From a phage, in NCBI GenBank assembly GCA_017864995.1, contig GCA_017864995.1_4097.1: a stretch of DNA of 64,000 bases, one strand, 5' to 3'. The notes beneath the pieces are model-generated. The model ran no database searches and was not told where the DNA came from. It was given only the letters and a program-made list of their open reading frames with translations. How positions within the stretch are numbered: position 1 is the first letter of the stretch; every line of letters starts with the position of its first letter. The translations under genes were made by a program, and so were the position numbers. Shown here piece by piece: positions 19,646-41,484 of this stretch.

Positions 19646-19672
19646 GGGTTGACTTCGGTCAACCCTTTTTTT
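19646..19672 (+). terminator. rho-independent terminator (GGGTTGAC-TTCG-GTCAACCC family)
   Basis: perfect 8-bp stem, TTCG loop, 7 T. Confidence 0.75.
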
Positions 19673-20299
19673 ATGGGACAAATTTATTAATGGTGATACA
19701 ATGATCTATGTACAATCACAATGACAGTACTGGTACTGACAATCTTCCCCTACTTCACTTGAAAATGTAAAGGATAGATGAGCTTTTCATTGTAGCGAAC
19801 AGCAAAAGAAACCCGTTAGATGTGGGCATAGTTTGAACCCCTCACGGCAATGCGGCTGTATAAAGAACCACGTTAGGATAGCTGGTGGTTCCTCGATAGA
19901 CATATAAGGATAACACCTTACGAATTATCTAAGGGAGAGTTATCGAATTTTGTACAGGAAAGTTGCGTCCAAAATTTGAGTACTCACATTAAGTATTTGA
20001 TTGCATAGATACTTAATGAAGATACACTATGTTTAAAAGTGTAGACCGTCATATGAAACTGAAGTAGAGAGAAACAGGATGACCCGCTTTCGCACTCGTT
20101 ATGAGTAATCTTCAATGCAATAGCTCTGATACCATCAGCGTCAAATTTCCCTCCGTGCGGGGGGAAGAAAAATCCCTTCCTCAAATCCCGTCAATATTAA
20201 AAGTCCTTGACAGTTATGATTCATTCGCGTAGAATACGTAGTATTAGAAGCGAACAGACATCTCGAAGAGATGGATGATTAACCATCGAGGAATATCTA
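19673..20299 (+). ncRNA. large intergenic region, candidate non-coding RNA or regulatory region
   Basis: about 630 bp with no SD-preceded ORF in a genome otherwise more than 90% coding; G/C-rich hairpins such as CCCTCCGTGCGGGGGGAAG; promoter at 20207-20235 near its 3' end. Confidence 0.3.
20207..20235 (+). promoter_or_regulatory. sigma70-like promoter
   Basis: TTGACA - 17 nt - TAGAAT. Confidence 0.5.
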
Positions 20300-20509
20300 A
20301 TGAATTCAGTAATCTTTTTAATTATTGCTCTTTCACCACAATCTGGCGTACAAATCACCCCAATGAATTCAATGAATCAATGCATTGCAGTACGTGACAG
20401 TACGTATGAACAAGTAAACAGCGTTTCACTTAGAACAGTTGGTGAAGAATTAATGTGGTGTTACAATAGTAATACTAAAGAAAAACTAATTGTTGGACAA
20501 ACAGAATGA
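20300..20509 (+). CDS. hypothetical protein
   Basis: ORF track; GAGGAATATCTA-ATG context. Confidence 0.4.
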   Translation: MNSVIFLIIALSPQSGVQITPMNSMNQCIAVRDSTYEQVNSVSLRTVGEELMWCYNSNTKEKLIVGQTE

Positions 20510-20736
20510 GTTATGGTGTTCGTTTTGAGATTCGTTCTATTGTTATCAATGACGAGAAACAAGCATCGTTGGATGGCGATATACGAGAACTATATCTATC
20601 ATGTATCCGTGCAAAATCTGAAGCAGATGTCTTAGTACAAATGTATAGTTTTAACTTTTCAAATGGATTCTATTTGGTACGAGTTATTGAAGTGAAAAAA
20701 GTACTTATTGGTTGTAGCATAGAAGGATTAATGTAA
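20506..20736 (+). CDS. hypothetical protein
   Basis: ATGA overlap. Confidence 0.45.
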   Translation: MSYGVRFEIRSIVINDEKQASLDGDIRELYLSCIRAKSEADVLVQMYSFNFSNGFYLVRVIEVKKVLIGCSIEGLM

Positions 20737-20737
20737 A

Positions 20738-21532
20738 ATGAGCACTATAGATGAATTGATTCGCCGGAATTCAAAATACTACGACCCATCAGAAATTGTC
20801 GGCAACATTACTAAATCTGAGTTCGGCCCAAATACTCGAAAACTCATTCATGTAATGTCACGTGATGGCTTTAAATGTGATTGTTGTGGTGAATCCAATG
20901 TGGTATTCACTTTACATAAGCACAGTACTAAAGACCGTTATAAATTCAGACCTTATGTACTTAAAGGGAAACGCCTTGTACGCATGACGTTAGACCATAA
21001 TGTACTGGACTGTCTTCAGGGCGGTAATGATAAAGAGAACATGACCGCATTGTGTGAGGATTGTAACGCATTACGCCAGCATAAGTTTGCTGAGTACAGT
21101 GAGTTTAAGCACTGGTATCATAACGCTGATCGTTCTATCGAGCCTGACGTTAACTACTGCTTCATTGAGTATATTAAGAATGCTAAAGATACGTACATTC
21201 TTAAATCAATGTCACCTATTACAGTGTTCCCTGAGAATCTATTCAGTACTATGCAGCGTGATTTTAAACGTGGTATCATTAATGCATTCAAACATTTAGA
21301 CAAAGGTATCAAGCACTTTGAGGTGCAATGCTTAAATGAAGGAATGAATCGTTTAGTACAAATTTACATGAAATCATTTATAGGTGTTGACACCGCACGT
21401 CTACCAGTATATAATTACTTTATTGAAAGCGAAGAAGGTGAATCACTTCGTGATTATGGTGAAAGATTTAATAATAAAGTTTTCACTGCAATCGCAAACG
21501 AGATTCATTACTATAAACCATATGTAATTTAA
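20738..21532 (+). CDS. HNH endonuclease-like protein
   Basis: CDCCGE ... LDHNVLDCLQGGNDKENMTALCEDCNALRQHK: CxxC, H-N, CxxC arrangement typical of HNH nucleases. Confidence 0.6.
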   Translation: MSTIDELIRRNSKYYDPSEIVGNITKSEFGPNTRKLIHVMSRDGFKCDCCGESNVVFTLHKHSTKDRYKFRPYVLKGKRLVRMTLDHNVLDCLQGGNDKENMTALCEDCNALRQHKFAEYSEFKHWYHNADRSIEPDVNYCFIEYIKNAKDTYILKSMSPITVFPENLFSTMQRDFKRGIINAFKHLDKGIKHFEVQCLNEGMNRLVQIYMKSFIGVDTARLPVYNYFIESEEGESLRDYGERFNNKVFTAIANEIHYYKPYVI

Positions 21533-21546
21533 TTAGAGGATATATC

Positions 21547-21729
21547 ATGCAAAACATCATTCTTATCGTAGGTATCATTCTTGGTGTATATGGTCACTCC
21601 TGGATGAACGAGAAGTTCCCTAATACCCGTCCTGAGTATTGCAGTACTAATGTATTCCAGAATGGTGAGAAACCAAAGGATAGTATTGGTAAGAAACTGG
21701 ACAAAGTACTTGACGTAATCAACGAATAA
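21547..21729 (+). CDS. hypothetical protein with N-terminal TM segment
   Basis: ORF track; GAGGATATATC-ATG context. Confidence 0.4.
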   Translation: MQNIILIVGIILGVYGHSWMNEKFPNTRPEYCSTNVFQNGEKPKDSIGKKLDKVLDVINE

Positions 21730-21738
21730 GGGTAAAGT

Positions 21739-21939
21739 ATGTTTAAATCAAATACAAATGTTGGTAAGAAGGTTCAATTACTTGAGGATGTATCCACCTT
21801 GAGTGGAATTTTCCCAAGAGGTCACATCATGACTATTATTGCCGAAACATCCCGTGGGTGGGATTTGGAAGATGCTGATGGTAATCGCATCCTTGAGGCT
21901 GGATTCTATGGTCATCGTGAATATAAAATCATTGATTAA
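21739..21939 (+). CDS. hypothetical protein
   Basis: ORF track. Confidence 0.45.
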   Translation: MFKSNTNVGKKVQLLEDVSTLSGIFPRGHIMTIIAETSRGWDLEDADGNRILEAGFYGHREYKIID

Positions 21940-21948
21940 GGATGCAAC

Positions 21949-22032
21949 ATGACTTTAGAGATTGTCTTTGGTATTGTTAGCTTAGTCGTCTGTGTGGGTT
22001 GGTTTGGGTATCTGATGATTTTTGGTGATTAA
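21949..22032 (+). CDS. mini hydrophobic peptide (27 aa)
   Basis: ATG after AAGGATGCAAC; single TM-like stretch; below ORF-track cutoff. Confidence 0.25.
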   Translation: MTLEIVFGIVSLVVCVGWFGYLMIFGD

Positions 22033-22035
22033 TAC

Positions 22036-22063
22036 TTGACATAAGATATCAGTACTGTATAAT
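22036..22063 (+). promoter_or_regulatory. sigma70-like promoter (repeated family)
   Basis: TTGACA - 16 nt - TATAAT with the CAGTACTG spacer motif. Confidence 0.6.
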
Positions 22064-22108
22064 GTTTATATCAAACGACACCCACTTTAACAAATAATAG
22101 GAAATATT

Positions 22109-22387
22109 ATGTCTTTTACCAAAGAAGAACGTGACCTTATTAAAAAAGCAATCTGGTTTTATGCTAATGAAGGGGAGTGCGATGAAGAAAAAGCACGTGA
22201 ACTGTGTAATATCCTTGAGCAGAAACAAGAACTGAAAGTTTATCGTATCCGTGTTTTGGATGACGGGGATCGTATTGTCCTAGCTGAAACAAAAGAAGAA
22301 GCAGAACAAATCTTCACTGATAAAAACGAAAATCCACATTGGATGGAAGAAGTCTGTGAAGTAAAAAAAGGTACTTATATCGATTGA
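22109..22387 (+). CDS. hypothetical protein
   Basis: ORF track. Confidence 0.5.
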   Translation: MSFTKEERDLIKKAIWFYANEGECDEEKARELCNILEQKQELKVYRIRVLDDGDRIVLAETKEEAEQIFTDKNENPHWMEEVCEVKKGTYID

Positions 22388-22412
22388 CTGTACTGAATAA
22401 TAGCAGTATAAT
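22384..22412 (+). promoter_or_regulatory. sigma70-like promoter
   Basis: TTGACT - 17 nt - TATAAT. Confidence 0.55.
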
Positions 22413-22505
22413 GTTTATATCAAAGGGAATGCAGTGAAAGGAAAGACAGCATAATCGTACTCGTCACTGCGTTTCCACCCTTTTAAATTAAATGAGGAAT
22501 TAACT

Positions 22506-22814
22506 ATGTTTCAAACTAACACTCAAGGTTTTGTAATCATCGATTTGAATCAAAACAGCGGTTATTGGATGAAACCTACTGACGCATGTATGCAGTTTGA
22601 TTTTTTAGGTTACAGGATTAGTGTAAGTACTGGTGCTTCTGTACTGCGTGGTGGTTGTATCGTTGAACATCTGGTAACTGATCCAGAAGGTCGTGAGTAT
22701 GAAATCGCAGGTTCAGTACAAGATGCCATTATGTTTGTATGTCAGCGTGAAATGAATAGTTCGAATTCAAATGCACTGACTCATGCTCTTTCTCAAGAAG
22801 TGGAGGTTCGTTAA
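22506..22814 (+). CDS. hypothetical protein
   Basis: ORF track; GAGGAATTAACT-ATG context. Confidence 0.5.
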   Translation: MFQTNTQGFVIIDLNQNSGYWMKPTDACMQFDFLGYRISVSTGASVLRGGCIVEHLVTDPEGREYEIAGSVQDAIMFVCQREMNSSNSNALTHALSQEVEVR

Positions 22815-23065
22815 TGAAATATATCGTAGCAGTACTCGTTGCATTTTTACTCACTGCATGTGACGCTTCAACAAAAGAACGCACAAGTGATTTTATTCTC
22901 CCTATTGAATTACAAGAAGCAGGATGTAAGATTTATCGTATGCAAAAGGACGGTGCTGGTGTAACCTTGTATACAGTTTATTGCCCTAATGCAAATACCA
23001 GTACTGGATACAGCAGCGGTAAAACACGAATCAATACTTCAGTGATTAATGGAGTACAACAATGA
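22814..23065 (+). CDS. predicted lipoprotein
   Basis: signal peptide with lipobox-like LLTAC (MKYIVAVLVAFLLTAC). Confidence 0.5.
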   Translation: MKYIVAVLVAFLLTACDASTKERTSDFILPIELQEAGCKIYRMQKDGAGVTLYTVYCPNANTSTGYSSGKTRINTSVINGVQQ

Positions 23066-23430
23066 GCCTTGATACAACCCGTGCAACAGATTTATTAACT
23101 CGTATGAATAATGAAGAATTTCTTGCTGAAATAAAGTACAAGCTTGAAAAACTGGCACGAAGTGCTGAAGTAATTGAAGTTGAAGGTCACTTACCAATGG
23201 ACCAATTCCATACGTTCAACGAAGATATGGTTTATTATCCAAATGAAATTTGGATTGAGTGGGAGTCATGGACTAACAAAACTCTACGCATTGAAGGTTA
23301 TTGTGTGAATTATGAATCTGAACCTGGTGATGTTACAAAAACTCTCTCCATTTGGTGTACAAAAACACATGAACTCGTTGAGGTGAATTTGAATTATATG
23401 AAAGGTTTCCGTTGGGGTGATGTTCAATGA
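23062..23430 (+). CDS. hypothetical protein
   Basis: ATGA overlap. Confidence 0.5.
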   Translation: MSLDTTRATDLLTRMNNEEFLAEIKYKLEKLARSAEVIEVEGHLPMDQFHTFNEDMVYYPNEIWIEWESWTNKTLRIEGYCVNYESEPGDVTKTLSIWCTKTHELVEVNLNYMKGFRWGDVQ

Positions 23431-23702
23431 TTAAAAAACTATTGACAGTTGTCTTTGTATTCTGTACAATGTTTCTTACAGCATGTAATGATGACGGCAG
23501 GTTTAGTGCAAAAGACTTAGTTCGTCAGGATTGTACATTCACAGGTAAGTCTTTTATTAACGAGTATGAGGTATGTACACAATCAGGCCGTATCTGTGGT
23601 GGTTGGGAAAAACGTCAGGAGAGATTGTATGTATATGAATGCCCTGGACATCTCAACAAAGTACTAAGCACACACAAACTTGTTTATGATAAGGTTGAAT
23701 AA
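23427..23702 (+). CDS. predicted lipoprotein
   Basis: signal peptide with lipobox-like FLTAC. Confidence 0.5.
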   Translation: MIKKLLTVVFVFCTMFLTACNDDGRFSAKDLVRQDCTFTGKSFINEYEVCTQSGRICGGWEKRQERLYVYECPGHLNKVLSTHKLVYDKVE

Positions 23703-23917
23703 TGACTACCAATGAAATGATGCAGGTTATTTGGGATAAAGGTTGTGATATTAAAATCACTAGTACTGATGTTCGTGTATTCAAAACTGAATATATGGAG
23801 TACTTGGACCTTGATACTTATAATAATATTGTATCAATTGAACACAAAGGTGCAGTACTGGAAACAATTGACGTAGTACTGAAGAAAGCTACCGACCTAT
23901 TAGGAGCGGCAGTGTGA
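23702..23917 (+). CDS. hypothetical protein
   Basis: ORF track. Confidence 0.45.
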   Translation: MTTNEMMQVIWDKGCDIKITSTDVRVFKTEYMEYLDLDTYNNIVSIEHKGAVLETIDVVLKKATDLLGAAV

Positions 23918-24060
23918 ATAACAAAGAGTGGGAAGAGTACCGTAAGAAGTGCAGGGAGTTTGATAAAGAACTAACTGGTACAGTGAATGCAGTAATGTGG
24001 GTATCTGTAATTATTGCAGTTCTTGCGTTGGGTGCTATTATTATTAATAAATTATTCTAA
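23914..24060 (+). CDS. small membrane protein (48 aa, GTG start)
   Basis: GTGTGA overlap with upstream stop; C-terminal TM segment; below ORF-track cutoff. Confidence 0.3.
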   Translation: MNNKEWEEYRKKCREFDKELTGTVNAVMWVSVIIAVLALGAIIINKLF

Positions 24061-24070
24061 GGCGAATATC

Positions 24071-24271
24071 ATGTTTACTTTATATCTCGCAGTAGTTCTC
24101 ACCAATGGTGAAATCACTCGTACTATTGGTGAAGGTGTATATAAAACACCAGACCAGTGCTACTCTGCTACTCATTGGCCTCGCGATAGTGGGGATGAAA
24201 CTCGCACTGAATTCAAATGCATGAAAGTAAAAGGTGATTTTGTTAACCTTAAGGTTATCGAGGCGAAATAA
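24071..24271 (+). CDS. hypothetical protein
   Basis: ORF track frame; start at ATG 24071. Confidence 0.45.
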   Translation: MFTLYLAVVLTNGEITRTIGEGVYKTPDQCYSATHWPRDSGDETRTEFKCMKVKGDFVNLKVIEAK

Positions 24272-24786
24272 TGGATATTAATGAGTTGTTGATCTTATTG
24301 TTTAATCGTGGAAATGATGTAAGACGTTCTGAATATCAAGACAAAATTCACATTGAAACTGATAAATGTTATGGTAAAACAACTCATGAGATTTTGAAGC
24401 CAAATGGCAAACGATATGCCGATGTATGTTTTCATGAACGAAGTGATGGTAGTGAAATAATCAGTACTGAAATTGTGTTTTATGATAGATCCTCGGCAGG
24501 ATCGTATGAAATAGAACTTATATATTGCCCTGGTTCAGAAACACACAATAAACGTCAGATATTATATGATGTTTATTCACCTCCAGGTGTAGCTGAATAT
24601 TTTGTTATTGATTACAGTACTGAAGAAAGTGTGTTTCAACAGAGCTTGATTCATAACTTCCAGTTGAATGATCCAAATGTACCAAAGTTGTTCAAACTAC
24701 TCGATACTATCGATGTTGATTTTGAATTTGTTATGTGCATTAGAACTTCCTTGATCGATGAATTTATGGAACTACTTAATATATGA
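24271..24786 (+). CDS. hypothetical protein, EE-x-FQ motif family member
   Basis: motif TEESVFQQSLIHNFQLNDP. Confidence 0.55.
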   Translation: MDINELLILLFNRGNDVRRSEYQDKIHIETDKCYGKTTHEILKPNGKRYADVCFHERSDGSEIISTEIVFYDRSSAGSYEIELIYCPGSETHNKRQILYDVYSPPGVAEYFVIDYSTEESVFQQSLIHNFQLNDPNVPKLFKLLDTIDVDFEFVMCIRTSLIDEFMELLNI

Positions 24787-25004
24787 ATCGTTACTACATT
24801 GTGTATGAGCATGTATCTGAGTTTAATAATGTACGTGGTTATAAGAAAGAAGTACAGAAGATTGATGTATTTGTTCGTGCATTAAGTCCAACACATGCAC
24901 TATTTAAATTGTTTGATGAAGTAACTAAGTACAACACACCAAAAACACAACGCTATATTGAAACAGTACATAGTGTAATACTCACTGAATATGATGGAGA
25001 ATGA
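24783..25004 (+). CDS. hypothetical protein
   Basis: ATGA overlap. Confidence 0.45.
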   Translation: MNRYYIVYEHVSEFNNVRGYKKEVQKIDVFVRALSPTHALFKLFDEVTKYNTPKTQRYIETVHSVILTEYDGE

Positions 25005-25007
25005 CAA

Positions 25008-25226
25008 ATGAATTTATATCTAGTTGAAGGGTCAGTACAAGTATCCAAGCAAGACGGAGAAGGGTATCGTTTTTCACATGTAGAATATTTTAAGTACGTA
25101 GTAAAGGCCGATGGTCAGTACGACGCAGAAATTCAGGTTGAAGAATCATTCCGTAAGAAGAATGATATTGGTAAATTTGAATACCAAGACTTACAATTCA
25201 CTGTATGGCCTAGCATTAATGACTAA
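25008..25226 (+). CDS. hypothetical protein
   Basis: ORF track. Confidence 0.45.
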   Translation: MNLYLVEGSVQVSKQDGEGYRFSHVEYFKYVVKADGQYDAEIQVEESFRKKNDIGKFEYQDLQFTVWPSIND

Positions 25227-25227
25227 G

Positions 25228-25431
25228 ATGTGGTGGTGTCATGGTGTCTACAATGTCTATGAATATGGTAGATTCAAAATGAGCAGCACCTATGCCAGAC
25301 GTGTTAATGCGAAAAACCAAGTTGATGCTGCTTGTGAGATTGTAGAGTGGTATGCAGAGTTCAATGCAATTGATTTTATGTACGAAATAGTTACAATAAA
25401 TGTTGTACAAATTGACACGTCTTTGATATAA
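25228..25431 (+). CDS. hypothetical protein
   Basis: internal ATG of ORF 25111..25431 placed just after the upstream stop. Confidence 0.35.
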   Translation: MWWCHGVYNVYEYGRFKMSSTYARRVNAKNQVDAACEIVEWYAEFNAIDFMYEIVTINVVQIDTSLI

Positions 25432-25467
25432 TAACTACATCAAAAAACAACTGCAACTGAGGATACT

Positions 25468-26130
25468 ATGTTAGTAAATCTTAATTTCATCACTTCTCCT
25501 GATTGGGCATTGCGTGGTGTTTCTTTGAACTTTAAAGAAACTAATTTCGACTACATTGGTGATTGTACTTTAGTTAATGCTACATTTGATCCTCATCATC
25601 CTTTTTGGGCTGAAATTCATGATCCTAATGTAAACAATAGTACATCTGTTATGACTATTGTACAGACGAAACATACAGGTATCCTCGCAGGTTATAGACC
25701 AGGACATGCGATTGAACACTTCACTGATTATGATGTAGTAGATGAGTATCCAATGATCCATGAAGATGGAAGTTTATACACGTCAGAAGACTTCCGTGCT
25801 ATCTTTAATAGTACTGATGACATTCTACCAAGTGGTCGTCCACGCCCTGAGTCTTATCTTATGCACCCGTCTTATGGTGTAGCAGATACGCTTGAACAGA
25901 TTTTGACGAAGTACAAGAACCTTATTGAAGGTCCAGAAGAAATTGTCATGTGCTATCATCCAGTCCTGAAGTCTGACCAACCAGAGAGTGGTGGGTGGCG
26001 TTGGCATAAGAATGGTGAGTACATCGGTACTAAGCGTAGTAAAGAACGCTTTGAGTACTTGTATGATGAGCCAGATGTTGAGGTTGTTTTATGTTATAAT
26101 TTTCTTAAGGTGAAAAAGAAATGTATCTAG
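25468..26130 (+). CDS. hypothetical protein (220 aa)
   Basis: ORF track; GAGGATACT-ATG context. Confidence 0.55.
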   Translation: MLVNLNFITSPDWALRGVSLNFKETNFDYIGDCTLVNATFDPHHPFWAEIHDPNVNNSTSVMTIVQTKHTGILAGYRPGHAIEHFTDYDVVDEYPMIHEDGSLYTSEDFRAIFNSTDDILPSGRPRPESYLMHPSYGVADTLEQILTKYKNLIEGPEEIVMCYHPVLKSDQPESGGWRWHKNGEYIGTKRSKERFEYLYDEPDVEVVLCYNFLKVKKKCI

Positions 26131-26363: not shown

Positions 26364-26374
26364 TACTGTATAAT
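26347..26374 (+). promoter_or_regulatory. sigma70-like promoter
   Basis: TTGACA - 16 nt - TATAAT, overlapping the end of the upstream ORF. Confidence 0.5.
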
Positions 26375-27192: not shown

Positions 27193-27202
27193 GGTATAAC
27201 AA

Positions 27203-27586: not shown

Positions 27587-27933
27587 AAGTAATTTTGTTT
27601 TTTGTTTGTATGATTATATGTGGTATGTCTTATGCAGAACCATTACCTGGACTAGTCTGTACTGAAGGTGATATTAAACACATTTACCAAGGTGATAGCG
27701 ATGACCATACTATCGTTTATATCGATGGTGAAGTGTATAATTTTGTTAAAGAACATACTGTAGGTGACATTAGTTTTACGCAGTACTCGAACGATACTGA
27801 TCCCAATATGCTTGCATTTCTTCAAGTTGATGTATATGAAGAAAGTAATGGCGAACAGTATGTTAAACTTGTGATGATGCGTAAGGCAGCAAAACAGGCA
27901 ACATTCGGTGGCTTGTGTAAATATGAGGACTAA
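27583..27933 (+). CDS. predicted secreted protein
   Basis: ATGA overlap; signal-peptide-like MKVILFFVCMIICGMSYA. Confidence 0.5.
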   Translation: MKVILFFVCMIICGMSYAEPLPGLVCTEGDIKHIYQGDSDDHTIVYIDGEVYNFVKEHTVGDISFTQYSNDTDPNMLAFLQVDVYEESNGEQYVKLVMMRKAAKQATFGGLCKYED

Positions 27934-27937
27934 ACAT

Positions 27938-28129
27938 ATGTTGATTTATCAATGTGATAACATTCGTGTTATGCAGCATCCCTACTTACAAATCTTTGAT
28001 GTGCAGCAGTATATGGAAGGTGATGATCCAAGAACCTATGGTCGTAAGTATGATTACTTCACTGTAAAGCAGTGTCATAACATCAAAGAAGTACGACAAT
28101 TAGTTCAAGAACTTCAAAATAAAGGTTGA
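27938..28129 (+). CDS. hypothetical protein
   Basis: start at ATG 27938 after GAGGACTAAACAT. Confidence 0.45.
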   Translation: MLIYQCDNIRVMQHPYLQIFDVQQYMEGDDPRTYGRKYDYFTVKQCHNIKEVRQLVQELQNKG

Positions 28130-28155
28130 CTTCGGTCAACCTTTTTTGTTATAAT
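28123..28155 (+). terminator. terminator hairpin with embedded -35 box plus downstream -10 (terminator/promoter cassette)
   Basis: AGGTTGAC-TTCG-GTCAACCT + T-run; TTGACT 28126-28131, 18-nt spacer, TATAAT 28150-28155. Confidence 0.7.
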
Positions 28156-28184
28156 TATTTCATCAACTACTGGGGATTTTAATT

Positions 28185-31214: not shown

Positions 31215-31325
31215 TTTGACTTTGGAACAACCATTTCATATGTGATATAATCTTAAGTGTCTGTTGAAATAAACAGCACATGAAGTATAAATATTAAAGT
31301 AATTTATCTCTTTAAGGAGTATGAA

Positions 31326-31709: not shown

Positions 31710-31715
31710 TTAAAA

Positions 31716-31750
31716 GGGGTTGACTTCAGTCAGCCCTTTGTCGTATAATA
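31716..31750 (+). terminator. terminator/promoter cassette (variant)
   Basis: GGGGTTGAC-TTCA-GTCAGCCC hairpin; TTGACT in stem, TATAAT 31745-31750 (19-nt spacer). Confidence 0.55.
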
Positions 31751-31796
31751 TTTTCATCAAGTGATACAAAATACAAACAACGTGAGGTATTAAATT

Positions 31797-32475: not shown

Positions 32476-32496
32476 TGGTATAGTACAGTGAAAATA

Positions 32497-32528
32497 GGGT
32501 TGACTTCGGTCAACCTTTTCTTTATACT
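32497..32528 (+). terminator. terminator/promoter cassette
   Basis: GGGTTGAC-TTCG-GTCAACC hairpin then T-run; candidate -10 TATACT 32523-32528. Confidence 0.65.
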
Positions 32529-32556
32529 ATAAATATAGTCATAGAGAATAAACAAT

Positions 32557-34068: not shown

Positions 34069-34076
34069 ACATTTAA

Positions 34077-34104
34077 AAGGTTGACTTCGGTCAACCTTTT
34101 TTTG
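34077..34104 (+). terminator. rho-independent terminator (same hairpin family)
   Basis: AAGGTTGAC-TTCG-GTCAACCTT followed by 7 T. Confidence 0.75.
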
Positions 34105-34139
34105 TAAATATTGTAGAGGGTTTTATAAGAGGTAATGCA

Positions 34140-34752: not shown

Positions 34753-34758
34753 AAGAAA

Positions 34759-34792
34759 AGGGTTGACTTCGGTCGGCCCTTTTTGCTATAAT
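34759..34792 (+). terminator. terminator/promoter cassette
   Basis: GGGTTGAC-TTCG-GTCGGCCC hairpin + T-run; TTGACT 34763-34768, 18 nt, TATAAT 34787-34792. Confidence 0.7.
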
Positions 34793-34818
34793 CATTTCAT
34801 CAACTACTGGAGGCAAAC

Positions 34819-35232: not shown

Positions 35233-35243
35233 GGAACAACATC

Positions 35244-35519
35244 ATGCGTTCATTTGAAAACTTAATCGGTAAACTTCGCTTACAAGAAATTGAAGCTGAT
35301 GTGAAGGAATTATCTGAAACTAAGAGTTACATTCATTTAGATGAACTGTTTATTAAGTACGGTGAGATTGGTTTTAAGTCATTATTTGTTTTTGTCATGA
35401 AGGTGCATAGTTTAAAGTACTTTGATTTGAGTTCAAAAGACGGACAACCAAATCTGTATTACATGTATTATCTTAAGAACATAGACGAAGCTAATACATT
35501 ATTCTTAGAATATATGTAG
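35244..35519 (+). CDS. hypothetical protein
   Basis: start at ATG 35244 after AAGGAACAACATC. Confidence 0.45.
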   Translation: MRSFENLIGKLRLQEIEADVKELSETKSYIHLDELFIKYGEIGFKSLFVFVMKVHSLKYFDLSSKDGQPNLYYMYYLKNIDEANTLFLEYM

Positions 35520-35530
35520 GGGTAAAAAAA

Positions 35531-35869
35531 ATGGAACAACATTTTGAATTAATTAATAAGGTATCATTTTATGTAGTATCGTTAATTTGGGTGTATTACA
35601 TGTTTTGTTACATTATTGCATTCTTCCGATACACAACCTTGTATCAACGCATATACTACGATGCACCCATTTCATTTATGATGTTCTGTGCATGTACGTG
35701 GGGGATAATTGAAGCACTGGTATGTGGATATAGTACTGACGAATTAAATCTCGTATCGGGGTTGACATTACTAACAATTGCCATTATGATAGCTACTGTT
35801 CCGATATTTTTGCTCTTTAAACTGCTTCATCGTATTGATGAGTGGCGTGATAAAATCCCTGAAAAGTAA
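35531..35869 (+). CDS. small polytopic membrane protein, LR[DN]K[IM]P family, copy 1
   Basis: 3 TM-like segments; C-terminus RIDEWRDKIPEK. Confidence 0.55.
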   Translation: MEQHFELINKVSFYVVSLIWVYYMFCYIIAFFRYTTLYQRIYYDAPISFMMFCACTWGIIEALVCGYSTDELNLVSGLTLLTIAIMIATVPIFLLFKLLHRIDEWRDKIPEK

Positions 35870-35872
35870 GGA

Positions 35873-36220
35873 TTGATAATGATTTTCTACACTAATGCTT
35901 TTGCTTATGCTATTGCATCAATCTACATTGTGTACTTCTTATTTGGTGGAGTACTGTACTTCTTTAAGTACAAAACATTGTTTAACCGAATGTATCCAAA
36001 TCATCCAATTGTTGTAGTACTTTTGATTATTTCTGTTGCTCACATCATTGTAGAAACAATAATGGGTATTAGTGCAGTACATTACAGTCTAGGTACTATT
36101 GTGATTATTACTATGATCATCGCATACATTTTAGTAATGGGTTTTGGTTTATTTGGAAATGTAGCAATGAAATTGTATAATCGAATCAAAACATTACGTG
36201 ATAATCTACCGGAGCGTTGA
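35873..36220 (+). CDS. small polytopic membrane protein, same family, copy 2
   Basis: C-terminus RIKTLRDNLPER. Confidence 0.55.
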   Translation: MIMIFYTNAFAYAIASIYIVYFLFGGVLYFFKYKTLFNRMYPNHPIVVVLLIISVAHIIVETIMGISAVHYSLGTIVIITMIIAYILVMGFGLFGNVAMKLYNRIKTLRDNLPER

Positions 36221-36221
36221 G

Positions 36222-36566
36222 ATGTATAATTTAAATTTAATATCATATATCATAACAACACTGTTTACTTTCTATGCCTTTGTTGGTATACTCCTACTGT
36301 ACTTTAAATTTTATAAACTTTTTGATCGTTTTTATCCGTCATTAGAACATGAATTCTTATTAGTGATGTACATATGTCTAACGTTTATGTCTACATTTTT
36401 CACTGCATCTGATGGTATCATTGGTATTAAAGCTGAAGAACCAAATGGGAGTACGCTTGTTGCCTTTATTCTGGTAGGATTTTTCAGTACTTATATTACC
36501 TTTATTTCAGGATGTACCGTGATTGATTATCTTGTGAAATTACGAGATAAAATGCCAAATCGATAG
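36222..36566 (+). CDS. small polytopic membrane protein, same family, copy 3
   Basis: C-terminus LVKLRDKMPNR; start at ATG 36222. Confidence 0.55.
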   Translation: MYNLNLISYIITTLFTFYAFVGILLLYFKFYKLFDRFYPSLEHEFLLVMYICLTFMSTFFTASDGIIGIKAEEPNGSTLVAFILVGFFSTYITFISGCTVIDYLVKLRDKMPNR

Positions 36567-36575
36567 GGGATTGCT

Positions 36576-36833
36576 ATGTTTGCATTGCGTAATAAAAATA
36601 CAAAAGAGATTCTATGTATCTCAATAGTATGGGATTGTGCAGGAAGTGAAATGATTCTCGAAGAAGGTTCAGGTGATTGTGTTTATGTTGTTCAGGATCG
36701 TCGCGAACTGGAATCATTACTTGACGAATTTAATGCTGGTGGAAATCCTAAAAGTACTCAATTCCCTGAGATCAGGAATCCAGCACCACCAGGCTCTTAT
36801 GAAATTCTACAACTGTGGGAGATGGATAAGTAA
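36576..36833 (+). CDS. hypothetical protein
   Basis: ORF track. Confidence 0.5.
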   Translation: MFALRNKNTKEILCISIVWDCAGSEMILEEGSGDCVYVVQDRRELESLLDEFNAGGNPKSTQFPEIRNPAPPGSYEILQLWEMDK

Positions 36834-37213
36834 TGCGTCAAATGCACAAAGTAACCGAGCTAAACAAGCGTCTGATTAAACAATCAATGTTTGAGGATAA
36901 AGAGTCTTACTATAACTTCAAACGTGCTGTAGAGGCTGCTATCCACATTCAGAAGCTTAAAGATAGTGGATGTATTATTCTCGAAAATGGTTCTGACGTT
37001 GTTACTGATGACTTCAGTGTAGCGTTTGATGTTTCACCTGATGGTTCGCTATCAATGCCACGCTTAGGGACTGGTGACATGACTGTGTGGGTAGGTTTCA
37101 CTATGGGGAATGTACCAGGCACGGTGTATGTAGATGATGCTGAGTTGAAAGAAAGCTTCAAAAACTTATCGCATCTTGAACCACAATACGCACATGAAAT
37201 GAATTTATTTTGA
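36833..37213 (+). CDS. hypothetical protein
   Basis: TAATG overlap. Confidence 0.5.
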   Translation: MRQMHKVTELNKRLIKQSMFEDKESYYNFKRAVEAAIHIQKLKDSGCIILENGSDVVTDDFSVAFDVSPDGSLSMPRLGTGDMTVWVGFTMGNVPGTVYVDDAELKESFKNLSHLEPQYAHEMNLF

Positions 37214-37214
37214 G

Positions 37215-37242
37215 TTGACAAACTCATTCAGTACTGTATAAT
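37215..37242 (+). promoter_or_regulatory. sigma70-like promoter (repeated family)
   Basis: TTGACA - 16 nt - TATAAT with the CAGTACTG spacer motif. Confidence 0.6.
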
Positions 37243-37289
37243 GTTTATCAAGGGGATGAACTTCTCATCCCCACAATCGAGGAATTGTC

Positions 37290-37844
37290 ATGATTACTTT
37301 TAAGAAAACTGCTAACCACATCCATGAGATCTACATTAACGGTCACAAAGCTGGCCTTCTTCGTTTACTCGCCCATCATCCGAATATTACCGTATCTGAT
37401 AATGAACCTAAAGATTGGCGTGTATTTTTCTTTGGAAAGTACAGTGATTTTCAAGTATCAAACCTGAAGAACATTCGTTCAGTATGCACGTTAACTGAAA
37501 TTAAAGAAAAGTTAACCAAAGCATTGAAAACTAATCCAGATAGTGTTCTTCCACCTGATAACTTTGTAGAGAAAGGATATGCCTTAGCTCATTTCAAAGA
37601 TGGTACTATTCAATCTATCAGTACTGAATATGAATATCAATGGACTGAGTACTTCACTTATGGATCGCGTAATACATTGATGGCTTCACGTAGTAAATTG
37701 GAAGAAGTACTGACTCGTATGAATGAACGCGAGCGTCAATTTTATGACAAACCAGAAATGTGGAGTTCAACTTACATTGACCGTATTGACTATGTTATTA
37801 TGACTCCAATCTTTGACACTGCTTACTATGATTCTTTGAAATAA
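37290..37844 (+). CDS. hypothetical protein
   Basis: ORF track; GAGGAATTGTC-ATG context. Confidence 0.55.
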   Translation: MITFKKTANHIHEIYINGHKAGLLRLLAHHPNITVSDNEPKDWRVFFFGKYSDFQVSNLKNIRSVCTLTEIKEKLTKALKTNPDSVLPPDNFVEKGYALAHFKDGTIQSISTEYEYQWTEYFTYGSRNTLMASRSKLEEVLTRMNERERQFYDKPEMWSSTYIDRIDYVIMTPIFDTAYYDSLK

Positions 37845-37855
37845 GGATAACTTAT

Positions 37856-38032
37856 ATGAAACTACGTACTCGTAATCGACTGATGGATGCACTGTACCAT
37901 GAACAGCTTTCACTGAATGAAGTGAAGCGTCAGTTAATGTACACATATCTGTTACCCGCTCGCATTGCAAAACAACGTGCTAAAGAATTGCTGAAAGAAG
38001 CAATCGAGTACTGGGAATCTGATTCGTACTAA
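37856..38032 (+). CDS. small basic protein (58 aa)
   Basis: AAGGATAACTTAT-ATG context; below ORF-track cutoff. Confidence 0.4.
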   Translation: MKLRTRNRLMDALYHEQLSLNEVKRQLMYTYLLPARIAKQRAKELLKEAIEYWESDSY

Positions 38033-38060
38033 TTGTCACGTTAATTAAGTGAGGCGATAA

Positions 38061-38312
38061 ATGAAAATTTTATTAGTTCTAATACTACTAATTGTTTTAC
38101 CATTTACGTTAGTATCCCCTGAACTTGCATGGAATGTGTTTGTGTACTTACTATGTACTATTGTAGTAAATGGTATCTTGATCTTAGTTCTATTCATAAA
38201 TGGAATAGGACACGGTGGAGGATGGACCAGTACTGCTGATATTGTACATAAAACCACTATGTTTTTATTTGTAGTGTGGAATTTATTCTGGACTTGGTTT
38301 GTGTTCTTCTAA
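38061..38312 (+). CDS. small membrane protein
   Basis: hydrophobic; GAGGCGATAA-ATG context. Confidence 0.5.
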   Translation: MKILLVLILLIVLPFTLVSPELAWNVFVYLLCTIVVNGILILVLFINGIGHGGGWTSTADIVHKTTMFLFVVWNLFWTWFVFF

Positions 38313-38321
38313 TTAAAAAAT

Positions 38322-38693
38322 ATGAATATAGATTTGAAAGGTGCAACACGAACTGTCATACTCATTGGGGAATATGCTATCAAGATTCCAACCTTTAAAA
38401 GTTGGAAGCTATTCTTAACAGGGATGATAGCTAACCTCAATGAACGTTCGTGGATGCAGTACTCCAAGCGTAGTGATACTGGTATCTGTCCTACTTTGTG
38501 GTCATCATGTACTGGACTAGTAACTGTACAGAAACGTTGTAAGCCAGTACAACATAGGGGTTTATTTTGGGTGGAGTTGTGTGCTTTAGCATTGAATTCA
38601 GAGTTAAGTACTGACTTCTTTTATTCAGATGCGAAGCCAGAAAACTTTGGGTATCTGTGTGGTAAGTTGGTTAAACTTGATTATGGAGATTAA
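38322..38693 (+). CDS. hypothetical protein
   Basis: ORF track. Confidence 0.5.
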   Translation: MNIDLKGATRTVILIGEYAIKIPTFKSWKLFLTGMIANLNERSWMQYSKRSDTGICPTLWSSCTGLVTVQKRCKPVQHRGLFWVELCALALNSELSTDFFYSDAKPENFGYLCGKLVKLDYGD

Positions 38694-38694
38694 T

Positions 38695-38964
38695 ATGTAC
38701 GCACTGTATAATAAAGAAAAGAAACGATTTGCTAAGGTTGAAATTTCGATTGATACATTTGACATGTTGGAGTACTGTATTGTAACGGACCTATATGCTA
38801 ACTTGTATTACGTTCTTGATGACGTATCAGTACTGCAACGATTGCTTGAGAATTCCAAAAGTCAATGCCAGGGCATCCATGATGGTTCATCTTATGAAAC
38901 ACCTGAGTGTTCCTACGGCTATCTGGACGGGTATGAGATTGTGAAGTTGGGGATTGTTGAATAA
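38695..38964 (+). CDS. hypothetical protein
   Basis: start at ATG 38695 after GGAGAT. Confidence 0.45.
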   Translation: MYALYNKEKKRFAKVEISIDTFDMLEYCIVTDLYANLYYVLDDVSVLQRLLENSKSQCQGIHDGSSYETPECSYGYLDGYEIVKLGIVE

Positions 38965-38976
38965 ATGGATTAAACA

Positions 38977-39390
38977 ATGAAGAAGTGTATCACGTGTAAT
39001 ATTGAAAAAGACATTAGTGAATTTGGTATAAGAAGTGATACTGGGAAACATAGAAATACATGCAAAGGTTGTAGTAATATTACCAGTAAGAGAACCAGAA
39101 ATAAAAAAACTGATGTAAAAACACTTGAAGAAATCAAAAGAAAAAATAAAGATTTCATGACCAGAGTTAAATCATTTTATGGTTGTAGTGTTTGTATGAT
39201 GAAGTATCCAGAATGTTTAGACTTTCACCATCTTGACCCTAATACCAAAGAACATACACCAAGTTCTATGTTCAGTAAAAGTCGAGATGCTATCAAAGAT
39301 GAAATTCGAAAGTGTATGATTCTTTGTTCTAATCACCATCGCATGGTACATTCTGGTAGACTATGTTTGATTGAAAGAAAAAAGGGTTGA
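38977..39390 (+). CDS. HNH endonuclease-like protein
   Basis: CITCNIEKD ... CKGC ... LDFHHLDPNTK ... CSNHHRMVH: CxxC, HH, N, CxxxHH pattern of HNH nucleases. Confidence 0.6.
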   Translation: MKKCITCNIEKDISEFGIRSDTGKHRNTCKGCSNITSKRTRNKKTDVKTLEEIKRKNKDFMTRVKSFYGCSVCMMKYPECLDFHHLDPNTKEHTPSSMFSKSRDAIKDEIRKCMILCSNHHRMVHSGRLCLIERKKG

Positions 39391-39416
39391 CTTCGGTCAG
39401 CCCTTTTTGCTATAAT
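39384..39416 (+). terminator. terminator/promoter cassette
   Basis: GGGTTGAC-TTCG-GTCAGCCC hairpin + T-run; TTGACT 39387-39392, 18 nt, TATAAT 39411-39416. Confidence 0.7.
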
Positions 39417-39444
39417 CATTTCATCGAAACGAGAGGATGAATAC

Positions 39445-39888
39445 ATGACACGCATTAACTTAGTACACGTTAAAGAACTTGCTGACCAACATCTGATGGC
39501 TGAATATCGTGAACTCCCACGTGTGTTTGGTGCTGTACAAAAACATGTTCAAGCACGTAAGCGAGTCCGTGATTTCAAAATTAACAGTACTTACCTGTTA
39601 GGTTCAGGTCATGTAACATTCTTCTACAACAAGTTATTGTACTTACAGAAGCGTCATATTGATATTGTTAACGAATGTTTGCGTCGTGGGATGAAGATTC
39701 AAAACACTGAAGTAAACGACATTAGCGGATTCCCTACTGAGTTTTGTAATGACTACGTACCATCGGAGTCAGAGATTAAAATGTCTCGTGAGCGTTTGAT
39801 TGAGAAGCTACAGATGAAGCCTACGTGGTATAAGTTTACTGATGTTGAGTTACCTGAGTATTATCGTTCTATGATAGTGTATTACTAA
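39445..39888 (+). CDS. denV: pyrimidine dimer DNA glycosylase / endonuclease V (T4 DenV homologue)
   Basis: N-terminal [31 protein letters not shown]...KRVRDFKI...[10 protein letters not shown] matches recalled T4 endonuclease V almost residue for residue, including catalytic N-terminal Thr2 and Glu23 context; C-terminal PTWYKF also conserved. Confidence 0.9.
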
Positions 39889-39988
39889 AAATACACCATA
39901 AATGAAGAAATTATTTAATACAAATGTGTTGACCAGTGGTTGACATTTATGTTAACATATCAGTACTGAAAACTAAAGAGATTGAGTA

Positions 39989-41443
39989 ATGTTTGAAGAA
40001 TTTTACATGAACTTAAAAAATGAAAAAGTATTCATACATAGTGAATGTGGGATGTCATTTCAATTCATTGATAATAGTATTCTTCCAGATTACTATAAGA
40101 ATGTGATCAATAAATTGAGAACCATAAATTCAAACATTACGATTTTTGGATTCTGTGTAAGCTCATTAGATGAGCTATCATCTAAATCAAAAATTCTTTT
40201 CATGTATAAGAATGTTTTATATTTAAATATGGATCAACATACCTTAAAAAATAAAATTTCCAAAACAACAGATTTGAAATTTGTAGTTCCATATAATAAT
40301 GATAACTATTTTTATTACATTACCCAAAAAGTGAAAAAATTTGGGGCATGTATTTTTGAAAATGAAAAAATAAGTGATGGTGCAAATACTATAATTAAAT
40401 ACAAATGTCACGACGGTCATATAACCAACAAAACTATAAAGGCGATTCACAATAATCCAGATAAATGTATGATGTGTGCTGGCATAGCCCCACTAACCCA
40501 AGAAAATGCATCATCTATCGTTGCGGAGAAATGTAAAGAAAAAAATCTTGAATTTACTCCATTTACATATATCAATATTTCTACCAAAATAAATCTATAT
40601 TGTAAGATTCATGATTATTCTTGGGTATCAGTGTATAATAACATCAGGAATGATGGGTTTGGGTGTAAGTATTGTGCAAGTGCAAAAAATTCAATGCTAC
40701 GCAAACCAAAAAACCCACAACAAGAAATTGAAAAAATATGTGTTGAGAATGGGTATAAATTAGTGGAGCCTTTTGTATATACCAATCAAACCACAGTCAT
40801 TCATTTAATGTGTGATAAACATCCAATACCCCACACATGGAAGACTGCTTATTCATCTTTGGTATATTCAAAGACTAAGTGTAACTTATGTCAAACACAT
40901 AAATCATCTAGGGCGAATATCATTAATAAAGAAGAACGTAAAGCTCAAGTTCAAGCAAAAAGTTTAAAAAATGACTGGGTATTGAAAGATTTTGAATTTG
41001 GGGGAAGTGTTTGTAGAAATATACATCTTGAATGTCATAAGCATAGTCGAGTACATAAGTGGACAACAACCTATCATCATTACATTGTTCGTGATCAAGG
41101 TTGTGCAGCCTGTAATAATGGTCATACACAGCAATATGCTTATATTAATACTATTTTAGACAATGATTTACCTGTGGCTTTAAAATATGGTATTGAAAAA
41201 CAAAAAGGAACAAGAGTTAAGACACAAAATAGAAAATCATTATTTAAAGTACAGTCATTGTATGTTTATGTATTCCAAAGCGTAGAACAGTGCAAGAACG
41301 CTGAAAAAGAATGTAAGAAGATTTTTGGAAAAGGTATTTTATCTAAACGCGAAATGTGTGATGGATATACTGAAACAACCACAATATTAAATTTGGGTAA
41401 AATCATTGAAATCTATGAAAAATGGGGTGGCGTAAAACAATAA
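39989..41443 (+). CDS. hypothetical protein with four tandem Cys/His zinc-ribbon-like repeats
   Basis: four repeats of the pattern C-x-[DK]-H-x(2-6)-W-x(10-20)-G-C-x(2)-C (KCHDGH...KCMMC; CKIHDYSW...GCKYC; CDKHPIPHTW...KCNLC; CHKHSRVHKW...GCAAC). Confidence 0.55.
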   Translation: MFEEFYMNLKNEKVFIHSECGMSFQFIDNSILPDYYKNVINKLRTINSNITIFGFCVSSLDELSSKSKILFMYKNVLYLNMDQHTLKNKISKTTDLKFVVPYNNDNYFYYITQKVKKFGACIFENEKISDGANTIIKYKCHDGHITNKTIKAIHNNPDKCMMCAGIAPLTQENASSIVAEKCKEKNLEFTPFTYINISTKINLYCKIHDYSWVSVYNNIRNDGFGCKYCASAKNSMLRKPKNPQQEIEKICVENGYKLVEPFVYTNQTTVIHLMCDKHPIPHTWKTAYSSLVYSKTKCNLCQTHKSSRANIINKEERKAQVQAKSLKNDWVLKDFEFGGSVCRNIHLECHKHSRVHKWTTTYHHYIVRDQGCAACNNGHTQQYAYINTILDNDLPVALKYGIEKQKGTRVKTQNRKSLFKVQSLYVYVFQSVEQCKNAEKECKKIFGKGILSKREMCDGYTETTTILNLGKIIEIYEKWGGVKQ

Positions 41444-41451
41444 TAAGAAAA

Positions 41452-41484
41452 GGGTTGACTTCGGTCGGCCCTTTTTGCTATAAT
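41452..41484 (+). terminator. terminator/promoter cassette
   Basis: GGGTTGAC-TTCG-GTCGGCCC hairpin + T-run; TTGACT 41455-41460, 18 nt, TATAAT 41479-41484. Confidence 0.7.

Follow-up and report, generated by a model that had tools for sequence, protein, structure and literature searches.

A 64,000-nt stretch of DNA (GenBank assembly GCA_017864995.1, contig GCA_017864995.1_4097.1; hereafter the window), assigned by megablast to a 121Q/PBECO4-like jumbo coliphage of the genus Asteriusvirus, carries eight copies of a short intergenic cassette built around a hairpin followed by a U-run, and the 5' arm of this hairpin contains the -35 sequence TTGAC. Very probably, these cassettes are units of the promoter-early stem-loop (PeSL) type, which would terminate the incoming transcript and restart transcription from a promoter whose -35 lies within the hairpin. 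The first-pass annotation of the window had proposed such fused terminator/promoter elements, and the sequence agrees with that proposal in every expectation that could be drawn from it; two copies, at 19646 and 34078, appear to be terminators only.

Both strands of the window were searched with the pattern GGGTTGACTTCGGTCARCCC, at most two mismatches being allowed. The hairpin motif, (A/G)GGTTGAC-TTCG-GTC(A/G)(A/G)CC(C/T) followed by a T-run, was found exactly eight times, the number that had been reported, within 19646-41471 and always on the + strand. The copies start at 19646, 28123, 31717, 32497, 34078, 34760, 39384 and 41452; five of these positions are those of the first-pass annotation, and the other three had been placed one base too early (31716, 34077 and 34759). 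In 100 dinucleotide-preserving shuffles no copy appeared, and chance occurrence was rejected.

All eight copies lie within 22 kb rich in small hypothetical open reading frames (ORFs), between + strand genes, where the gap from stop codon to next start is typically 55-85 nt. The order of parts is stop codon, A-run, hairpin, T-run (U4-7 in RNA), -10 box in six of the eight, short leader, Shine-Dalgarno (SD) sequence and ATG. The upstream stop is located 7-21 nt 5' of the hairpin or, in two copies, is the TGA within TTGAC of the 5' arm, and from hairpin to ATG there are 39-42 nt in all copies but 31717 (60 nt) and 19646 (634 nt). The stem has 8 bp, lengthened by A:U pairs to 9-13 bp, and its loop is TTCG closed by C-G (a cUUCGg tetraloop) in seven copies and TTCA in 31717, so that the tetraloop attributed to the whole set holds for all but one. 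The -35 was said to lie in the stem as TTGACT; TTGAC does sit in the 5' arm, and the last T is the first base of the loop. A -10 is found 17-18 nt after TTGACT in six copies. TATAAT at an 18-nt spacer, expected in at least four, is present in five (28123, 34760, 39384, 41452 and, in addition, 31717), four of them with TGn, and 32497 has TATACT at a 17-nt spacer; 19646 and 34078 have the hairpin and T6-7 with no -10 at the proper distance. The -35 and -10 together match the consensus at 11 of 12 positions in the five TATAAT copies, including the four with TGn, and at 10 of 12 in 32497. Transcription is predicted to begin at an A about 7 nt past the -10, giving a leader with SD of 20-22 nt (40 nt in 31717). 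The conserved leader of the first-pass annotation, (C/T)ATTTCATCAACT, occurs as such at 28123, 34760 and 41452; 39384, also included there, has the variant CATTTCATCGAAAC, and 31717 has ATTTTCATCAAGT. The eight cassettes are given below.

Cassette 1, 19643..19672, + strand: terminator-only, with AAA, hairpin 19646-19665 (GGGTTGAC-TTCG-GTCAACCC) and T7, -17.6 kcal/mol; the phage sigma-factor gene (18673-19638) stops 7 nt before it, and no spacer of 16-19 nt leads to a -10.
Cassette 2, 28121..28184, + strand: hairpin 28123-28142, -35 at 28126-28131, T5, -14.1 kcal/mol; TGn and TATAAT 28150-28155, predicted +1 at about 28162, leader with SD, ATG 28185.
Cassette 3, 31713..31796, + strand: hairpin 31717-31736 (loop TTCA, one G.U), -16.0 kcal/mol; -35 at 31720-31725, weak U-run TTTGTCG, TATAAT 31744-31749, predicted +1 at about 31756, ATG 31797.
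Cassette 4, 32496..32556, + strand: hairpin 32497-32516, TTTCTTT, -14.4 kcal/mol; -35 at 32500-32505, TATACT 32523-32528 (17-nt spacer), ATG 32557 of a gene annotated as virion structural protein in relatives.
Cassette 5, 34075..34139, + strand: AAA, hairpin 34078-34097, T6, -15.6 kcal/mol; no sigma-70 -10, its position being occupied by GTAAATAT; ATG 34140.
Cassette 6, 34756..34818, + strand: AAAA, hairpin 34760-34779 (two G.U), T5, -18.0 kcal/mol on the + strand versus -10.1 on the - strand; -35 at 34763-34768, TGn and TATAAT 34787-34792, predicted +1 at about 34799, leader CATTTCATCAACT, SD GGAGG, ATG 34819.
Cassette 7, 39378..39444, + strand: A6, hairpin 39384-39403 (one G.U), T5, -19.8 kcal/mol; -35 at 39387-39392, TGn and TATAAT 39411-39416, predicted +1 at about 39423, leader CATTTCATCGAAACGAGAGG, ATG 39445 of a denV-like glycosylase gene.
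Cassette 8, 41448..41512, + strand: AAAA, hairpin 41452-41471 (two G.U), T5, -18.3 kcal/mol; -35 at 41455-41460, TGn and TATAAT 41479-41484, predicted +1 at about 41491, leader TATTTCATCAACT, ATG 41513 of an AAA-ATPase-like ORF.

The TGA within TTGAC, part of the 5' arm of the hairpin, is the stop codon of two upstream ORFs, 27908-28129 (TGA at 28127-28129) and 38977-39390 (TGA at 39388-39390). At both sites the hairpin would be occupied by the terminating ribosome, suggesting that termination at 28123 and 39384 could depend on translation. The T4-type late-promoter motif TATAAATA has only two copies in the window (31286-31293 and 32528-32535) versus 12.3 expected, both just 5' of ORFs annotated as virion structural proteins in relatives, and the copy at 32528 overlaps the -10 of cassette 4. 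This overlap, together with GTAAATAT in place of the -10 of cassette 5, suggests that the same hairpin is joined to late-type signals too. A transposable repeat similar to repetitive extragenic palindromic (REP) sequences or miniature inverted-repeat transposable elements (MITEs) was also considered, and was rejected on account of the single orientation, the fixed position between stop codon and SD, and flanks with no duplicated target.

In RNA folding, the eight copies reach -14 to -20 kcal/mol and z-scores from -4.3 to -5.8. Their 3' arm varies by A-to-G changes (GTCAACC, GTCAGCC, GTCGGCC), which keep a U.G pair in the + strand RNA and create a C.A mismatch in the complement; the - strand folds of the copies with these changes fall to about -10 kcal/mol. 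Pairing was counted across 27 different cassettes, drawn from the window, from six relatives within Asteriusvirus and from one phage of the KVP40 type. In this set, 97.3% of the cells of the stem pair, GC/AU compensation is seen at two stem pairs, the outermost G-C pair swaps with A-U (seven sequences) via G.U intermediates (four sequences), and the first T of TTGAC is mostly in a U.G pair. The orthologue of cassette 1, behind the sigma-factor gene of G17, 121Q and SHEFM2K, reads GGTTGGC-TTAT-GCCAACC, so that an A-U pair has become G-C, the stem is kept and the -35 is destroyed. The strand-asymmetric wobble and the compensatory changes show that the hairpin is selected as RNA of the + strand. 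Moreover, TTGAC is invariant in every copy that bears a -10, where the variation falls on the 3' arm, and is altered, with compensation, only in the promoter-less copy behind the sigma-factor gene, which points to two overlapping constraints on the same bases.

The association of hairpin and -10 was then compared between viral and bacterial copies. An exact-pattern scan of IMG/VR gave 53 matches, 50 of them distinct, in carriers that include RaK2, CBB, GAP32, Serratia BF, 121Q, Aeromonas phage 65, Vibrio VH7D and Brochothrix phage A9. A -10 matching at least five of six positions at spacers of 16-19 nt follows 41 of the 50 distinct viral copies (82%), compared with 4.6% in a random-position control; 48 copies score best at a spacer of 17 or 18 nt, TGn is present in 42, and the DNA downstream is unrelated between contigs. 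The same pattern, applied to one genome per species of 185,579 bacterial and archaeal species, gave 26 matches, one per contig, in Acinetobacter, Exiguobacterium, Vibrio and others. Only two of these (8%) have a -10 and none has both -10 and TGn (Fisher's exact p = 2e-10 for viral versus bacterial coupling). The T-run is 5-8 nt long in the bacterial copies (3 nt in two), versus 4-5 nt in nearly all viral ones. Since the bacterial copies are mostly plain, the hairpin alone appears to be a generic terminator, and its fusion to a -10, with a shorter U-run, a trait of phages.

These data bear on an alternative reading, namely that the elements are terminators only, with an incidental TTGAC in the stem and a downstream TATAAT that belongs to -10-only or independent promoters. 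Promoters with a TGn extended -10 can function without a good -35, two of the eight window copies (19646 and 34078) have no -10, and the identical 20-mer is a plain terminator in the chromosomes of Acinetobacter, Exiguobacterium, Vibrio and other bacteria. Annotators have likewise listed the hairpins just as terminators: each one is an ARNOLD terminator in the G17 record, and in the supplement of the CBB paper they are terminators, again by ARNOLD (Torf39, 515, 518 and 520), and are not among its 18 RpoD-like promoters. The record of Yersinia phage fHe-Yen9-03 annotates -35 and -10 on the same cassette, without a terminator. However, in 82% of viral copies the -10 stands at a constant 17-18 nt from TTGACT in front of unrelated DNA, TTGAC stays unchanged where a -10 is present and changes with compensation where it is absent, and the short T-run of phage copies is expected if spacer length is selected. 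Terminators without a promoter function are therefore an improbable account of the set.

Several observations on the viral copies extend beyond the hairpin. Brochothrix phage A9 (HM242243, ~92-94 kb), which has a Gram-positive host, carries the identical 20-nt hairpin followed by TTTTGTTATTAT twice. In several CBB-like and related contigs of jumbo phages, a recurring leader, ...GCAGATA(A/C)(G/C)CC...CTAACCCA(Y)(W)GGGTG..., comes after the cassette and replaces SD and ATG; this leader, GCAGATA(A/C)(G/C)CC...CTAACCCA, is absent from the window and may represent a cassette-driven small RNA or a structured leader. The start region or leader CATC(A/G)AAC or CATCGAAACGAG is common to the window (28156-28168, 34793-34805, 39417-39436 and 41485-41497), many RaK2-like contigs and Vibrio phage nt-1, so that conservation reaches past the -35 and -10 into the initially transcribed sequence. 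A scan of IMG/VR anchored on the leader TTTNNNTATAATNATTTYATCRA, with the hairpin left free, returned mostly chance matches in AT-rich giant-virus contigs.

The cassettes also lie at module boundaries. BLAST comparison of the window with six relatives gave 12 distinct homology breakpoints within 17-45 kb, four of them in cassette footprints (31760, 32491, 39370-39379 and 41440-41448); the footprints make up 2.2% of this segment, and the enrichment (binomial 1e-4 versus a uniform null) is suggestive. Homology of 121Q, G17 and SHEFM2K with the window breaks at 31760 in cassette 3 and resumes at 32491 in cassette 4. That of BF17, G17, 121Q and CMSTMSU resumes at 39370-39379 (cassette 7), and that of all six relatives at 41440-41448 (cassette 8). 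Stronger, structural evidence comes from a recombinant junction in fEgEco12: its cassette at 25224 has the sequence of BF17 cassette A, without a difference, from the left side through the hairpin, and likewise that of cassette B from the -10 on; the 2.76 kb with three ORFs that separate cassettes A and B in BF17 are missing in fEgEco12. Between the conserved '216' ORF and the AAA-ATPase ORF (41513 in the window), seven different contents were found in nine genomes, i.e., the window and eight relatives (C, cassette).

EC.P1 and fEgEco12: HNH, C, denV, C.
Window: HNH, C, truncated denV + ORF484, C.
BF17: C, denV, C, three ORFs, C.
G17, 121Q, UB and SHEFM2K: C, denV + one or two ORFs, C, two or three ORFs, C, the contents varying by genome.
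ph0011: HNH, C, four ORFs including a Dam methylase, C, denV, C.

No phage record covers at least 80% of window 37000-43500, and the 1.6 kb of 39849-41444 has no megablast match among 50,697 phage records. This segment replaces the 3' end of the denV-like gene, whose product has 147 aa in the window versus 171 aa in relatives. It carries ORF484 (39989-41443), one member of a multi-copy family that bears the annotation endonuclease in RaK2 (seven places) and K64-1; ORF484 has a weak CapR-domain match, and its CBB homologue lies between two cassette-type hairpins. In addition, cassette 39384 is directly adjoined by an ORF of 137 aa whose annotation in fEgEco12 is HNH endonuclease. The presence of endonuclease-type ORFs beside the cassettes suggests that homing-type gene conversion may contribute, the cassettes providing flanking homology and expression signals, and such conversion is a likely complementary cause of the mosaicism. 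An apparent 4-kb insertion in WPEC5 proved to be an artefact of BLAST pieces joined via a second cassette; the locus is collinear.

These features raise the question whether the cassettes are primarily recombinational, that is, mobile or portable blocks of homology, possibly together with the neighbouring homing endonucleases, with transcription signals of secondary importance. The clean hybrid junction falls within the shared 36-40 nt, cassettes bound modules in all nine genomes, and members of a multi-copy endonuclease family stand beside cassettes in both the window and CBB; moreover, the PeSL papers propose excision and integration of mini-circles (PMC4122927; PMC2839356). However, repeats of 36-40 nt would recombine regardless of their function, several breakpoints fall outside the cassettes (29711/30180 and 34511/35230), and the strand asymmetry, the tetraloop, the U-run and the exact -35/-10 geometry are left unexplained by recombination and accounted for by transcription. 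A primarily recombinational role is thus, in our view, decidedly unlikely.

The palindrome could also be read as DNA, as an operator at which a dimeric phage or host regulator on the -35 shuts early promoters. The core is common to all copies, and an inverted repeat centred on the -35 is the classic layout of a repressor site. However, the majority 3' arm (CAGCC or CGGCC) breaks the symmetry of the DNA and keeps the pairing of the RNA, the identity of the UUCG loop and the U-run would have no role in an operator, and the same hairpin serves unrelated bacteria, as well as a phage of a Gram-positive host, as a terminator. Given the asymmetry of the majority 3' arm as DNA, the operator was rejected as the main reading, and we give it very little credence. 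Least credible of all is a mainly post-transcriptional role, in which the hairpin is a 3' stabiliser or processing mark on upstream mRNAs and not a terminator: cUUCGg hairpins, which Tuerk et al. are said to have described in 1988, are reportedly exceptionally stable and common in T4 intercistronic regions, but a hairpin directly followed by a U-run is the signature of a terminator, stabilisation would come from termination rather than substitute for it, and the coupling to a -10 would be left unexplained.

The PeSL-type reading is strengthened by comparison with known systems. According to Arbiol et al. 2010 (PMC2839356), PeSLs of RB49/phi1 consist of a sigma-70 early promoter and a stem-loop terminator, located in variable regions 5' of ORFans, and fall into five subclasses by the position of the stem-loop, including one that overlaps the -35. 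The same paper reports lacZ assays in which terminator strength was comparable to rrnB T1 and the promoter very strong, and demonstrates recombination between PeSL cassettes. PeSLs were later described in PST/T4 and nt-1/KVP40, together with 'half' elements, the nt-1 consensus being A3-4 G3-loop-C3 T3-4 with TTGYVH-N17-TAWWAT (Comeau, Arbiol & Krisch 2014, PMC4122927). In the 51-56 kb segment of nt-1 named in that paper, the gaps contain AAAAGGGTTGC-TTCG-GCAGCCCTTTTTTG...ATCAAC and ...TATTATATCTACATCGAAACGAG (in fuller form TTTAAAAGGGTTGC-TTCG-GCAGCCCTTTTTTGTTATTCT...ATCAAC and GAAAAGGGTTGCACTATGCAGCCCTTTTTAGTATTATATCTACATCGAAACGAG), and the KVP40-type phage phi-pp2 has GAAAAGGGTTGACTGCGGTCAGCCCTTTCGCGTATTAT...TTCATCAAC. 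The layout of both is that of the window: A-run, GGG, TTGnnn, tetraloop, CAGCCC, T-run, -10 and CATC(A/G)AAC. The order of parts, the position of G.U in the stem, the leader motif (CATCAAC and CATCGAAACGAG in nt-1, matching CATTTCATCAACT and CATTTCATCGAAACGAGAGG in the window) and the association with indels are alike, so that the window cassettes can be assigned to PeSLs of the nt-1/KVP40 type.

More generally, the window elements share with PeSLs a -35 and -10 about 17 nt apart (six of eight, the other two corresponding to the 'half' elements known among PeSLs), a stem-loop overlapping the -35, an intergenic span, clustering in an ORFan region, indels at the cassettes and direct similarity. 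They differ in their carrier, an Asteriusvirus jumbo myovirus (~350-385 kb) and not a T4-like phage (Straboviridae), a difference that concerns where PeSLs were described and not their mechanism. Unlike those of nt-1/KVP40, the window cassettes have a near-consensus -35 (TTGACT) and an almost invariant hairpin, and copies of this type are confined to one segment of ~14-22 kb; in the 348.5-kb genome of 121Q, all seven exact copies lie within one 14-kb segment. The RB49/phi1 elements include the -35-overlapping subclass, and their stems are polyG/polyC and variable in position, whereas the window has one fixed design with the -35 in the 5' arm beside UUCG. Canonical cUUCGg intrinsic terminators have the same GC-clamped stem (8-11 bp), 4-nt loop and U-run, and ARNOLD predicts window-type hairpins; unlike them, the phage copies have the U-run cut to 4-5 nt and a TGnTATAAT at promoter spacing. 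Lambdoid morons, a concept discussed for T4-like phages, are likewise autonomous transcription modules with accessory genes in variable regions; however, their promoter and terminator stand at opposite ends of the gene, whereas the window element joins the terminator of module n to the promoter of module n+1. A text search of the literature for the string GGGTTGACTTCGGTCA found nothing. The design itself is thus already published for T4-like phages, and the window cassettes extend a known kind. PeSLs in this phage group have not previously been described as such, nor has their composite nature been noted; the new points are that they occur, tightly clustered, in jumbo phages of Asteriusvirus and the RaK2-like group, that the sequence gives evidence of a dual constraint, and that phage and bacterial copies differ.

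The properties of intrinsic terminators and sigma-70 promoters, as well as the RB49/phi1 reporter assays, suggest the following mechanism. RNA polymerase arriving from upstream would transcribe the A-run, GGGUUGAC-UUCG-GUCARCCC and U4-7, and hairpin and U-run would act as an intrinsic terminator or attenuator, upstream transcripts ending in the U-run; the hallmark arrangement, a GC-rich hairpin directly followed by a U-run of 3-7 nt, co-oriented with and 3' of a gene, is present. The same DNA would serve as a host sigma-70 promoter, with the A-run as upstream AT-rich DNA, TTGACT in the 5' arm as -35, the 3' arm and T-run as spacer of 17-18 nt, and TGnTATAAT as extended -10, from which the sigma-70 holoenzyme would start about 7 nt past the -10. 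Since this start is downstream of the hairpin, the new mRNA would be free of its own terminator and begin with a leader (~20-40 nt) carrying the SD, and each module would be shielded from read-through and driven by a strong early promoter of its own. The repeats of ~36-40 nt would also be portable homology for the insertion, deletion and swapping of modules between related phages. With the spacer fixed at 17-18 nt the U-run is held to 4-5 nt, and termination at promoter-bearing cassettes is therefore probably partial; 31717 (UUUGUCG) should be the weakest terminator, and at the cassettes whose internal TGA ends the upstream ORF, the 5' arm could be masked by a ribosome close behind.

A number of points weigh against this reading. 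The U-run is short (U5 then GCU, and only UUU in 31717), which makes termination efficiency uncertain; two ORFs stop in the 5' arm, where a trailing ribosome could mask the hairpin; the -10 is lacking in two of eight copies; and the 18-nt spacer exceeds the optimum by one. The breakpoint enrichment is modest when set against an intergenic-only null, the cassettes making up about one quarter of the intergenic DNA, and putative homing-endonuclease genes adjoin several cassettes and could account for part of the mosaicism. Moreover, a search of the literature on cassette-carrying phages (Asteriusvirus, RaK2-like) found no transcript 3' or 5' ends and no transcriptome.

Single-molecule studies report that RNA polymerase stays on the DNA after intrinsic termination and restarts at nearby promoters (PMC6978380, PMC10372574). 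It is conceivable, though doubtful, that AAAAGGGTTGAC-TTCG-GTCAGCCC-TTTTTGnTATAAT (~36-40 nt) is a near-universal standard part of phages in which nearly every base has two jobs and on which a polymerase that has just terminated might re-initiate on the spot. If so, this part would have been reached independently or passed horizontally among T4-like Vibrio/Aeromonas phages, RaK2-like jumbo phages and a SPO1-like phage of Brochothrix, and a release site within the promoter spacer would couple the output of successive modules and reset transcript boundaries.

The window contains other repeats of promoters and terminators. A second + strand promoter family, TTGAC(A/T)-N-CAGTACTGTATAAT, in fuller form TTGAC(A/T)-N-CAGTACTG(T)ATAAT(GTTT), is found at 4355, 4776, 5087, 5846, 22036, 22384, 26347 and 37215; some of its copies are preceded by AGTAC, which would again place the -35 within an imperfect hairpin. 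Both fEgEco12 and CMSTMSU cleanly lack the ORF 22109-22387, between the copies at 22036 and 22384, with an overlap of 19 nt, suggesting that promoter repeats of another class bound an indel too. On the - strand, from ~46 kb to the end of the window, each RCC1-like paralogue is preceded by CCAGTAC-loop-GTACTGG, TTTTCTTTTT and GATTAAATATAGTATAATG...AGGAGG-ATG; the fuller form of the hairpin is (A/T)GCCAGTAC-loop-GTACTGGC, again followed by TTTTCTTTTT and GATTAAATATAGTATAATG...AGGAGG-ATG. The string TAAATATAG has 10 occurrences versus 1.9 expected. The positions are as follows.

RCC1-associated cassettes, - strand, span 44797-62830: 44797, 46685, 47964, 50574, 51860, 53082, 54345, 55573, 56828 and ~62813.

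Judged by its sequence, this family looks like a second kind of terminator-then-promoter cassette, with a promoter of late or middle type.

As to the setting, the best megablast matches of the window are BF17, WPEC3 and Ecwhy_1 (99.5-99.6% across 8 kb), and Asteriusvirus genomes have ~350-385 kb. The GC content is ~35%, and the GC skew switches sign near 45 kb. From 1 to ~45 kb the window consists of small + strand ORFs, almost all "hypothetical" in the annotation of relatives, and TTGACN-N16-19-TANNNT occurs 38 times on the + strand versus six on the - strand. This abundance of near-consensus sigma-70 promoters makes 1 to ~45 kb look like an early, host-takeover region. Six tRNA genes (Ser-TGA, Ser-GCT, Met, Asn and two Thr-TGT) lie in it at 3662-7734; they are the only features of the window to pass Rfam gathering thresholds (3.6-7.7 kb), with no match at the cassettes. 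The ~600 nt at 19690-20290, 3' of the sigma-factor gene, contain no convincing ORF, are unannotated also in BF17, 121Q and fEgEco12, and have their own promoter-like site, GGGACA-16-TACAAT with TG; the segment has no Rfam match and a fold z-score of just -1.75, and a permissive Rfam search of 19600-20350 gave sub-threshold noise only.

In the annotations of this phage group, the cassette sites are terminators in G17 and CBB and promoters in fHe-Yen9-03, but nowhere both, and the fused-cassette reading would give an operon map of the early region directly. A -10 accompanies 82% of the phage copies, which have U4-5, and 8% of the bacterial ones, which have U5-8; this difference shows a clear compromise between terminator strength and promoter spacing, and the identical cassette is present in very distant phages, including one on a Gram-positive host. 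A 60-nt part that insulates and re-drives transcription would be useful for synthetic biology. For jumbo phages, the cassettes would mark natural junctions for engineered gene swaps, and they would explain why the slot from denV to the ATPase gene varies in nearly every sequenced relative.

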